A stretch of DNA of 64,000 bases from Escherichia phage vB_EcoM_LMP25. Positions 50,967 to 52,446 of the stretch are shown piece after piece; positions within the stretch are counted from its first letter, which is position 1, and every line of letters begins with the position of its first letter. A program made the translations under genes and the position numbers. The notes below the pieces were generated by a model. It did not search any database. It saw only the letters and a program-made list of their open reading frames with translations, and was not told the origin of the DNA. The stretch lies in sequence record MK482688.1. One strand, given 5' to 3'.

Positions 50967-51038
50967 TGGTACTCCATATCGGATTCGAACCGATACATAA
51001 CACAGATTTTAAGTCTGGCCTCTCTGCCAATTGGAGTA
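50967..51038 (-). tRNA. tRNA-like gene with anticodon loop CTTAAAA (UAA, Leu-type), short D-arm and short variable loop; identity uncertain
   Basis: Good acceptor and T-arm (ATCGG-TTCGAAT-CCGAT), A73, CCA; D-arm region too short for a canonical fold. Confidence 0.45.
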
Positions 51039-51047
51039 ATGGAGCAT

Positions 51048-51123
51048 TGGCGGGGGATGTTGGAATTGAACCAACTTCTTCGATTTCAAAGACCGAGGTT
51101 TTAACCTTGTAAACTAATCCCCT
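51048..51123 (-). tRNA. tRNA-Gln (TTG)
   Basis: Anticodon stem TCGGT/ATCGA with loop CTTTGAA; position 1-72 is an A-C mismatch. Confidence 0.6.
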
Positions 51124-51131
51124 TTAAATCT

Positions 51132-51689
51132 TTACTTTCTCAGTGGATGAATAAAGAATGCCAACATAACTCTTTCCCTTGAGAATGCTCTTTCTTCTGG
51201 GACAACACTTTTTAGTTTCCATCCAATATAAATTCTCCAGTAAAATTGTTTACCAAAGATTTTAATTGATGGGATAAAAGCGAATAATCCCCAAGCATTA
51301 CTATTCCACATTAGGAGATAACCTGTCTGATTATCTTCGGGGTCAGAACTTACGTTGATATTACCTTTCCACTTAGTAACATCTCTTACATCTCTTCCTA
51401 ATACATGGTAAGAGAAGTTATAAGCTTTGTTTCTCCAGAGCCATCCGACTCTTTGCATGTAGACACCTAGTTTACCAATCCATCTAATATTAGCCCATCT
51501 TTTAACGTGGCCTTCATCACCATCAATTGGGTTGTCATATGTCTCCATCCATCTGAACCCGAAAGGTAAGTGTCCTTTCTTCTCACTGTAGAATGGCACT
51601 ACAAAAGGTGCTAAGATAACTGCTAAGATTGCTGCAAATGGCTCTAACAAAGCTAAGAAAATCCATGAAGCATACTTCAAATATCTCAT
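51132..51689 (-). CDS. Hypothetical membrane protein embedded in the tRNA array
   Basis: 185 aa; hydrophobic N-terminal segment, Trp-rich. Confidence 0.45.
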   Translation of the reverse strand: MRYLKYASWIFLALLEPFAAILAVILAPFVVPFYSEKKGHLPFGFRWMETYDNPIDGDEGHVKRWANIRWIGKLGVYMQRVGWLWRNKAYNFSYHVLGRDVRDVTKWKGNINVSSDPEDNQTGYLLMWNSNAWGLFAFIPSIKIFGKQFYWRIYIGWKLKSVVPEERAFSRERVMLAFFIHPLRK

Positions 51690-51708
51690 CTAAATAGCCT
51701 CTTTAAAT

Positions 51709-51784
51709 TGGCGCAGGATAAGGGATTCGAACCCCTATTAACAGCTTCGTAGACTGTTGCTCTATCCATTTGAACTAATCCTGC
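51709..51784 (-). tRNA. tRNA-Arg (ACG)
   Basis: Acceptor GCAGGAT/ATCCTGC, anticodon stem ACAGT/GCTGT with loop CTACGAA. Confidence 0.75.
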
Positions 51785-51789
51785 AAAAT

Positions 51790-51867
51790 TGGTGTTCCAA
51801 GACGGATTCGAACCGTCACTAGTACAAGGTTTGAGCTTGCATCCTCTGCCAATTGGGATACTGGAAC
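51790..51867 (-). tRNA. tRNA with anticodon CAA (Leu-type) but short variable loop; identity uncertain
   Basis: Acceptor GTTCCAG/TTGGAAC, A73, anticodon stem GCAAG/CTTGT with loop CTCAAAC, T-arm GACGG-TTCGAAT-CCGTC. Confidence 0.5.
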
Positions 51868-51868
51868 A

Positions 51869-51943
51869 TGGTACTCACTAAAGGACTTGAACCTTTTTCT
51901 TCATCTTGTAAGGGTGATGTTTTACCATATAAACTAAGCGAGT
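51869..51943 (-). tRNA. tRNA-Val (TAC)
   Basis: Acceptor ACTCGCT/AGTGAGT, anticodon loop CTTACAA, T-arm AAAGG-TTCAAGT-CCTTT. Confidence 0.6.
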
Positions 51944-52040
51944 GTTGAAAGAGGTCTGAAGTTGTGCCGCTAACTCAACTCCGTGGGATTTGTTACGGTC
52001 TTCAGTTGACTCAAAGCGGTCTTTCACTTGACCTCTAAAT

Positions 52041-52116
52041 TGGTGCTCCCACAAGGATTCGAACCCTGATAAGTTGCTTACAAGGCAACCGTAATAGCCA
52101 ATTATACGATAGGAGC
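52041..52116 (-). tRNA. tRNA-Thr (TGT)
   Basis: Anticodon stem GTTGC/GCAAC perfect, loop CTTGTAA. Confidence 0.75.
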
Positions 52117-52123
52117 ATTAATT

Positions 52124-52198
52124 TGGAGCATCCAGAGGGAATCGAACCCTCAACCTCAGTTTGGAAGACTGTAATTTTCCCGTTTAAACTATGGATGC
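52124..52198 (-). tRNA. tRNA-Gly (TCC)
   Basis: Acceptor GCATCCA/TGGATGC, anticodon loop CTTCCAA. Confidence 0.65.
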
Positions 52199-52205
52199 AC
52201 TAATT

Positions 52206-52280
52206 GGTGGAGTCACTGAGAATTGAACTCAGTTCCCAAGTTTGCAAAACTCGAATTTTAACCATATAAACTATGACCCC
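52206..52280 (-). tRNA. tRNA-Ala (TGC)
   Basis: Acceptor GGGGTCA with G3-U70 pair (Ala identity element), anticodon loop TTTGCAA. Confidence 0.7.
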
Positions 52281-52286
52281 AATGTT

Positions 52287-52362
52287 TGGTACAGGTGGAG
52301 GGAATTGAACCCATCATCTTACTGATTAAGAGTCAGCCGCATAACCATTTTGCTACACCTGC
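52287..52362 (-). tRNA. tRNA-Lys (CTT)
   Basis: Anticodon stem GCTGA/TCAGT with loop CTCTTAA. Confidence 0.55.
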
Positions 52363-52369
52363 ATTAATT

Positions 52370-52446
52370 TGGTACACCTAGAGAGATTCGAACTCACACT
52401 GAGCAGATTCTAAGTCTGCTGCCTCTACCAGTTGGGCTATAGGTGC
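52370..52446 (-). tRNA. tRNA with anticodon TAG (Leu-type) but short variable loop; identity uncertain
   Basis: Perfect anticodon stem GCAGA/TCTGC with loop CTTAGAA, A73, 5-nt variable loop. Confidence 0.5.

Follow-up and report, generated by a model that had tools for sequence, protein, structure and literature searches.

Short-variable-loop (type I) leucine tRNA genes in Escherichia phage vB_EcoM_LMP25 and their relatives in other phages

Three transfer RNA (tRNA) genes with the leucine anticodons UAA, CAA, and UAG lie in a tRNA array of the Felix O1-like Escherichia phage vB_EcoM_LMP25, of which a stretch of 64,000 nucleotides (nt) was analyzed (record MK482688.1; this whole stretch is referred to below as the window). 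All three fold with variable loops of 5 to 7 nt, i.e., as type I tRNAs. Comparative evidence points to functional leucine isoacceptors that belong to a widespread type I lineage, found mainly in phages, and that would be charged by the host's leucyl-tRNA synthetase (LeuRS); we put the probability of this reading at about 0.8. Parts of the picture are already known, in that records of related phages routinely annotate the three genes as tRNA-Leu (x3) and type I tRNA-Leu is established in animal mitochondria and in Streptomyces coelicolor. From sequence we infer that the phage tRNAs are expressed, that Escherichia coli LeuRS charges them, and why selection would have favored the short form.

Anatomy of the three tRNA-Leu genes

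The genes are located on the minus strand at 50967..51045 (UAA), 51790..51867 (CAA), and 52370..52446 (UAG). They belong to an array that spans 49771..54846 and comprises 25 tRNA genes, every one of them on this strand; it was delimited with ARAGORN, Rfam, and the annotation of the related phage JLBYU32. Each of the three was called by ARAGORN, was divided into its structural elements by segmentation, and scored above the gathering score of Rfam model RF00005 (29 bits), with 47.5, 43.6, and 57.3 bits, respectively. Model positions 1 to 71 were matched in every case, which corresponds to a full-length cloverleaf.

Including the encoded CCA, the genes measure 79 nt (UAA), 78 nt (CAA), and 77 nt (UAG). 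Their anticodons sit in 7-nt loops (CUUAAAA, CUCAAAC, and CUUAGAA, respectively), the discriminator is A73 in all three, and the variable loops, GUUAUGU (7 nt), ACUAGU (6 nt), and UCAGU (5 nt), each end in U48. The Rfam alignments of the UAA and UAG genes gave the same anticodon loops, CUUAAAA and CUUAGAA, with variable regions of 7 and 5 nt. The leucine anticodons, the placement of their loops, A73, and the short variable loops had been proposed in a first-pass annotation folded by eye, and the ARAGORN and Rfam folds bear them out; with 5 to 7 nt in these folds, no long variable arm had been overlooked. The first locus of that annotation (50967-51038) had its 5′ acceptor strand cut off, and its true 5′ end is at 51045.

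The UAA gene has G1.U72, a 3-base-pair (bp) D stem (CUC/GAG), the D region CAAUUGGCAGA, and a C27.U43 mismatch; the segmentation of its D stem was adjusted by hand, taking the second GAG. The CAA gene has G1-C72, the D stem UCC/GGA, and the D region CAAUUGGCAGA. G1.U72 recurs in the UAG gene, together with the D stem GCC/GGC, the D region CAACUGGUAGA, a U50.U64 mismatch in the T stem, and an anticodon stem of 5 bp that is perfect, as had been noticed by eye.

None of the three carries the variable arm of a type II tRNA-Leu, that is, at least 10 nt forming a stem-loop, and all three have the short variable loop of the S. coelicolor type I tRNA-Leu, which comprises at least 5 nt including nucleotide 48. 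Long arms are retained by the Ser tRNAs of the array, at 93 and 90 nt, and by its Tyr tRNA, at 88 nt. The first-pass annotation had found no canonical type II Leu gene in the array, and this extends to the whole 64-kilobase (kb) window, where ARAGORN detected no type II tRNA-Leu, and to the rest of an identical genome: Escherichia phage vB_EcoM_LMP34 (Felixounavirus) matches the window at 100% identity, and its remaining 21 kb, outside the window, contains zero tRNAs.

The window matched 312 phage records, mostly from Escherichia, Salmonella, Shigella, and Citrobacter hosts, and approximately 300 related genomes retain all three Leu genes at 90 to 100% identity. Among themselves, the three genes share only 62 to 67% pairwise identity, and because of this divergence we read them as old isoacceptors, each maintained separately. 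A recent triplication of one gene is ruled out by the same figures and by the fact that each gene is nearer to type I genes of other phages.

A family of short tRNA-Leu genes in phages

A BLAST search with the UAG gene retrieved annotated tRNA-Leu genes of 74 to 80 nt from Mycobacterium, Streptomyces, Gordonia, Enterococcus, Pseudomonas, Klebsiella, Cronobacter, and Prochlorococcus phages and from one crAss-like phage. The phage loci found in this way were confirmed with ARAGORN on the fetched sequences. Identity among type I members from phages of unrelated hosts was 81 to 89% over 55 to 69 nt.

The frequency of the short form was gauged from two viral scans and one bacterial genome scan of 120 loci each; the resulting ratios of type I to type II are indicative rather than a census, and all counts from the scans are among the loci listed. 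A pattern accepting either type (a Leu-like D loop, a spacer of 24 to 50 nt, and a T loop) was applied identically to both collections. It returned 61 type I and 22 type II Leu loci from viral contigs, and 20 type I and 67 type II Leu loci from bacterial genome contigs. For the second viral sample, loci were collected with a generic T-arm-plus-CCA pattern, and clearly classed tRNAs were counted; here, Leu was type I at 25 loci and type II at 44 (25/69), while Ser (0 versus 43) and Tyr (0 versus 15) were type II throughout. Of the tRNA-Leu genes in the sampled viral contigs, about one third or more are type I.

The type I Leu genes of bacterial genomes were of two kinds, solitary Leu(CAA/UAA) genes of Actinomycetes and members of dense tRNA arrays. 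Such arrays, with 17 to 29 tRNAs per 8 kb, were found in Acidobacteriota and Asanoa (L143, L191, and L174) and on a further contig (L214); each holds 1 to 4 type I Leu genes along with type II Ser and Tyr genes and resembles a phage array. Both architectures can occur in one phage: in Enterococcus phage vB_OCPT_Bop, a transfer-messenger RNA gene (tag AKNEELLAVA; L003:3301-3648) is placed inside a tRNA array, where its neighbors include a type II Leu(UAA) gene and a type I Leu(UAG) gene.

An alignment of 116 type I tRNA-Leu genes (A1) was examined for conservation of the fold. A cloverleaf with a short variable loop left 96.0% of the cells paired, and the covariation score was 0.979, compared with 0.233 for shuffled alignments and 0.13 to 0.19 when pairing partners were slid. 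Double changes were present in 19 of the 20 pairs, and compensatory changes occurred in all four stems. Since pairing and covariation lie far above the shuffled and slid controls, the fold is not a chance product. Identity positions were conserved overall at 95 to 100%: A14 was present in all 116 genes, A73, U48, and G18 in 115, A15 in 114, G19 in 112, and A20a in 110. The variable loop was exactly 5 nt, the modal length, in 102 of the 116.

With the variable region masked, 151 of 165 type I genes had a nearest neighbor that was itself type I, so that the type I genes form a lineage of their own. Under the same masking, the UAG gene of the window was 81% identical to a solitary Actinomycetaceae Leu(UAA) gene (L162), and its best type II match reached 69%. 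The usual D-arm form in A1 is UAGCCCAAYUGGCAGAGGC. A minority of the alignment (e.g., L011:6252-6328, L019:9760-9917, and L024:962-1038) keeps a D arm like that of the host (UGGCGGAAUUGGYAKACGC; G9 and G13), and this type II-like minority points to more than one loss of the long arm. On these comparisons, short tRNA-Leu is widespread in phages of many bacterial phyla and is a common form there. The first-pass annotation had started from the premise that short Leu tRNAs are an exception, which is valid for the host and in textbooks but not for phages.

The family data bear on how the arm was lost. An arm that LeuRS can dispense with might have been deleted once or a few times, with adjustment of the core and horizontal spread of the product through phages and mobile tRNA arrays, neutrally or for economy and with no special function attached. 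Such a history draws on the dispensability of the arm for E. coli LeuRS (PMC9976931), on the clustering of type I genes with one another (151/165), on the 81 to 89% identity over 55 to 69 nt between phages of unrelated hosts, and on the minority with the UGGCGGAAUUGGYAKACGC D arm, which suggests further independent losses. Economy is a poor motive, however, as the approximately 10 nt saved per gene are trivial in an 85-kb genome, and the near-fixed 5-nt loop and altered core imply selection on structure, beyond mere tolerance. We consider a loss of this kind possible, at odds clearly below even.

Proposed charging and decoding, and the missing arm

The phage genes were compared with E. coli K-12 leuQ (CAG), leuZ (UAA), leuX (CAA), and leuW (UAG), which were segmented alongside them; the anticodons UAA, CAA, and UAG are common to the phage genes and leuZ, leuX, and leuW. 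Host and phage tRNAs are alike in their 3-bp D stem, in an 11-nt D region of the form N-AAYYGGYAGA (AAYYGGUAGA) in the same register, in a variable region ending in GU, in U48, and in A73. The G1.U72 of the phage UAA and UAG genes is also found in leuZ. They differ in the variable region, which has 13 to 15 nt in the E. coli isoacceptors and 5 to 7 nt in the phage genes, and in the core, in which A9, C12-G23, and C13 of the phage genes correspond to G9, G12-C23, and G/A13 of E. coli. Positions 9, 12-23, and 13 are those that pack against the variable region. The T loop is UUCAAGU in E. coli and UUCGAAU in the phage.

The E. coli leucine identity set consists of A73, U8:A14, A15:U48, G18G19, A20a, and D/T-loop contacts (Giege and Eriani, PMC9976931). 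In the three phage genes, A73, U8:A14, A15:U48, G18G19, A20a, U54, U55, C56, and A58 are all present, in the same register as in leuZ, leuX, and leuW. The long arm is uncorrelated with leucylation, and E. coli tRNA-Leu variants lacking their anticodon arm as well as the long arm are still active (PMC9976931).

No synthetase domain was found in the ten largest open reading frames (ORFs) of the window, which encode polymerase, ribonucleotide reductase, tail fibre, tape measure, primase-helicase, terminase, portal, baseplate, and DUF proteins. Outside the window, the identical genome has no annotated synthetase and, apart from rIIA, no ORF big enough to encode one. On ORF domains, annotation, and ORF sizes, it is thus ruled out that the phage encodes a LeuRS of its own that is adapted to type I tRNAs, and because the phage has no synthetase, charging must fall to the host LeuRS.

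Under this assignment, the three Leu tRNAs would be transcribed together with the other genes of the array and processed with the CCA already encoded. Each would take an ordinary L-shape around a type I-style core (A9, C12-G23, C13.A22, and a variable loop of 5 to 7 nt) while keeping the D loop, position 48, and discriminator of a bacterial tRNA-Leu. The host enzyme would ignore the anticodon and, in E. coli, the long arm; it would recognize A73, U8:A14, the Levitt pair A15:U48, the way in which G18G19 and A20a are placed, and the D/T-loop elbow and would then attach leucine. In decoding, the UAA tRNA is predicted to read UUA and UUG, the CAA tRNA UUG, and the UAG tRNA CUA and CUG, a role that would serve the AT-rich Leu codon usage of the phage. 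Leu would be the sole long-arm family able to lose its arm, because bacterial seryl- and tyrosyl-tRNA synthetases (SerRS and TyrRS) use theirs. A loss confined to Leu fits the observation that Ser and Tyr tRNAs stayed type II in every phage sampled.

The G+C content of the window is 39%, and its Leu codons are divided among UUA (25.9%), UUG (14.1%), CUU (27.4%), CUC (6.5%), CUA (10.8%), and CUG (15.2%), so that UUA, UUG, CUA, and CUG together account for 66%. In E. coli, CUG makes up about half of the Leu codons and CUA about 4%, and the supply that the host offers for UUA and CUA is low. In phage NrdA, TTA, TTG, CTA, and CTG codons stand opposite Leu in E. coli NrdA at 17 of 40 positions (Leu background, 9.4%) and opposite I, L, V, M, or F at 32 of 40; CTT and CTC codons stand opposite Leu at 5 of 16. 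In this phage, the codons assigned to the three tRNAs mean leucine.

Several findings weigh against charging by the host enzyme or against the integrity of the tRNAs. E. coli LeuRS failed to charge the S. coelicolor type I tRNA-Leu(CAA), the sole bacterial tRNA-Leu of this type to have been studied, in vitro (PMC6614811). According to Fan et al., the E. coli enzyme charges type II tRNA-Leu only, and the same group reported that its leucine-specific domain prefers tRNAs with a large variable region (PMC6614811). In Aquifex, arm orientation affects charging. Single-sequence minimum free energy (MFE) folding gave a cloverleaf for the CAA and UAG genes and a different fold for the UAA gene; structure was judged by covariance-model alignment and comparative analysis rather than by MFE. 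Finally, there are the C27.U43 (UAA) and U50.U64 (UAG) mismatches. The in vitro failure could possibly be reconciled through position 48: the S. coelicolor tRNA has C48 (PMC6614811), whereas the phage genes have U48 and thereby keep A15:U48, a pair that the E. coli enzyme is said to require.

The first-pass annotation had offered two branches, atypical Leu tRNAs or tRNAs charged with something else; the former is favored by the identity nucleotides, the covarying family, and the NrdA codons, and the latter is disfavored. Were the tRNAs to carry another amino acid behind their Leu anticodons, UUR and CUR codons would be recoded or become ambiguous. Precedent exists in type I UAG-anticodon tRNAs that accept Thr in yeast mitochondria or Ala in Ashbya (PMC7609411), and the type I body and the failure of E. 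coli LeuRS on one type I tRNA-Leu (PMC6614811) point in that direction. In the phage tRNAs, however, the 3:70 pairs are U-A, U-A, and A-U, hence not G3:U70, every anticodon loop has 7 nt rather than an enlarged number, and the Leu-specific A15:U48, A20a, and A73 are conserved across the family. The NrdA codons, moreover, stand opposite Leu or other hydrophobic residues at 32 of 40 positions, and competition from host tRNA-Leu with the same anticodons would spread ambiguity over the proteome. We judge mischarging very improbable. Among individual candidates, Ala and Thr identity are ruled out by the lack of G3:U70 and by the 7-nt loops, and SerRS or TyrRS substrates are ruled out, as the three Leu tRNAs have no long arm. 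Under general identity rules and those in PMC9976931, no anticodon-reading synthetase finds a matching anticodon.

The genes might instead have no part in translation, being either copies in decay or tRNA-like decoys or regulators that stay uncharged. The mismatches, of which one affects an anticodon stem and one a T stem, would suit such a fate, as would the in vitro result with E. coli LeuRS (PMC6614811). Against this stand the retention of all three genes in approximately 300 related genomes at 90 to 100% identity, the 62 to 67% mutual identity expected of old, separately maintained isoacceptors, the compensatory changes in all four stems across the family, the fit of the anticodons to phage codon bias, and the encoded CCA. 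Disuse is, in our view, improbable.

The anticodon loops of the phage Leu tRNAs depart from those of the host at positions 32, 37, and 38. All three phage tRNAs have C32, whereas the host has U32. The phage UAG loop, CUUAGAA, has A37 where the E. coli leuW loop, UUUAGGU, has G37, and m1G37 is therefore impossible in the phage tRNA. In the CAA loop, CUCAAAC, C38 interrupts the A36A37A38 motif, which is required by MiaA. The same motif is a key determinant for TrmL (PMC9976931). Modification of the phage Leu tRNAs, and hence their decoding, may differ from that of the host isoacceptors.

These loop changes are also relevant to a proposal that is compatible with Leu charging, namely, that the short form hides the phage tRNAs from nucleases or toxins that recognize type II tRNA-Leu. 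With the arm lost and the core and anticodon loop altered, Leu decoding would survive destruction of the host tRNA-Leu. Under the identical search pattern, type I is enriched in viral contigs (61:22) relative to bacterial genomes (20:67). A BLAST search of the UAA and UAG genes against 5,426 complete E. coli genomes (E of ≤10) returned no match, although the reach of short queries against 28 gigabases is limited; at the sensitivity used, there appears to be no host or prophage counterpart in E. coli. Besides the departures at positions 32, 37, and 38, the Sf14 paper describes such loop changes in the tRNA-Leu(TAG) of a related phage and ties them to nuclease resistance (PMC12482277). Type II tRNAs are targets of SLFN11 and SLFN14, two antiviral nucleases of eukaryotes (PMC11615386 and PMC13245857), so on that account arm-directed immune nucleases exist in principle.

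Other observations argue against such a purpose. No bacterial nuclease that recognizes the tRNA-Leu long arm was found, and the Ser and Tyr tRNAs of the same phages retain their arms. Many Actinomycetes carry a solitary chromosomal type I gene, to which a phage logic does not apply, and T4 and T5, whose anti-nuclease tRNA biology is well studied, have type II Leu. We regard evasion of this kind as unlikely. The more specific suggestion that a bacterial Schlafen counterpart targets the tRNA-Leu long arm or type II core, and that phages of many phyla converged on or exchanged an arm-less form that still satisfies LeuRS, is speculative, and we give it a slim chance. As for why the arm was lost, the data are compatible with neutral loss permitted by the mode of LeuRS recognition, with selection for a compact host-independent body, or with escape from host factors that target type II tRNAs.

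Other elements of the array and comparison with known systems

An additional element of the array, a tRNA-like gene of 82 nt with the anticodon UCU, lies on the minus strand at 53031-53112 including CCA (Rfam, 53034-53112; 31.7 bits) and is not called by ARAGORN. It reads CGGGGCG UA UCUC AGCGGU CUUCUAA ACCGCC ... GAG UAAGUGGA GUAU GCGGG UUCGAGU CCUGC CGCCUCG A CCA, with an acceptor stem of 7 bp, a T arm of normal form, A73, CCA, and the loop CUUCUAA (anticodon UCU, Arg AGA). There is no D hairpin; a 3-bp helix (CUC/GAG) surrounds the anticodon hairpin and is followed by a D-loop-like UAAYUGGA. In an alignment of 57 relatives from viral contigs (A2), the enclosing helix was found by both direct count and RNAalifold, and it covaries strongly (CG 41, UA 10, GC 4, AU 2; GC 26, UA 15, CG 10, AU 6); UAAYUGGA is conserved.

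BLAST located the UCU element in 262 phage records at 82 to 100% identity across unrelated groups, with carriers among Felixounavirus, T5-like Klebsiella phages, jumbo phages, rV5-like phages, and Serratia and Streptomyces phages. In these records it is mostly unannotated or labeled "tRNA-OTHER." AGA makes up 41.8% of the Arg codons of the window, and no canonical tRNA-Arg(UCU) was found there; T4 and T5, in contrast, have a canonical tRNA-Arg(UCU). A full-text literature search yielded no paper on the element. It may function as an Arg tRNA, with a topology that has no precedent, or it may mimic a tRNA.

Two protein genes lie inside the tRNA array, at 51132-51689 and 49946-50680, both on the minus strand; the corresponding labels in phage JLBYU32 are "putative holin" and "putative membrane protein." Because these genes lie within the array on the same strand, the array tRNAs may be cotranscribed with lysis or membrane genes. 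The ORF at 55012-56427 (minus strand), which adjoins the array, contains DUF2828 and DUF7788 domains and is labeled "putative vWFA protein" in a relative. Its position beside 25 tRNA genes hints at an RNA-related function, one that is perhaps Ro60/TROVE-like.

Turning to what has been reported on the short form, a 2023 review states that Leu has a long arm everywhere but in animal mitochondria (PMC9976931), and the S. coelicolor exception had been presented as rare and as requiring a special LeuRS (PMC6614811). In the full-text literature searched, which is thin on subscription journals, no report of phage type I tRNA-Leu or of its frequency was found, and the phrase "type I tRNALeu" was confined to a single paper. 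The group of approximately 300 virulent E. coli and Salmonella phage genomes described here has only type I for the three Leu anticodons. If these tRNAs are charged in E. coli, then the limit stated for the E. coli enzyme would be wrong or dependent on position 48, LeuRS identity rules could be tested with natural substrates in the best-understood host, and compact natural Leu scaffolds would be at hand for tRNA engineering. A question raised is why Leu alone, and never Ser or Tyr, loses its arm in phages.

The closest known case is the S. coelicolor type I tRNA-Leu(CAA), in which U8:A14 is important and the variable loop, counted with nucleotide 48, must have 5 nt or more (Fan et al. 2019, PMC6614811). 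Solitary actinomycete type I genes and the phage genes have a common core, UAGCCCAAYYGGCAGAGGC...CAGUGUGGGUUCGAAUC; actinomycete relatedness was judged on the Actinomycetaceae gene L162, not on the gene of S. coelicolor itself. The S. coelicolor gene is chromosomal and has C48, whereas the phage genes are viral and have U48. The S. coelicolor LeuRS does not use A73 as an identity element, and E. coli LeuRS does not charge the S. coelicolor tRNA (PMC6614811); the host here is E. coli or Salmonella, and, unlike in S. coelicolor, all three Leu isoacceptors of the phage are type I.

Animal mitochondrial tRNA-Leu(UUR/CUN) is likewise type I and owes its identity to A73 and A14 with no long arm (PMC9976931), but it is organellar, structurally degenerate, and served by a mitochondrial LeuRS of its own. 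The tRNA-Leu genes of T4 and T5 resemble those described here in lying within tRNA clusters of virulent E. coli phages and differ from them in being type II, at 87 and 85 nt; they rule out the generalization that all coliphage Leu tRNAs are short. That these classical sets contain type II Leu may be the reason why the type I form had escaped attention.

Yeast mitochondrial tRNA-Thr(UAG) and Ashbya tRNA-Ala(UAG) are also type I with a Leu-box anticodon (PMC7609411). They have an 8-nt anticodon loop or G3:U70 on a non-Leu body, whereas the phage tRNAs have neither and carry a Leu-type D loop. Engineered E. coli tRNA-Leu without the arm, in the account that PMC9976931 gives of Larkin et al. 2002 and Asahara et al. 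1998, was charged by LeuRS given A73 and the D/T-loop contacts; those are laboratory constructs, whereas the phage genes are natural.

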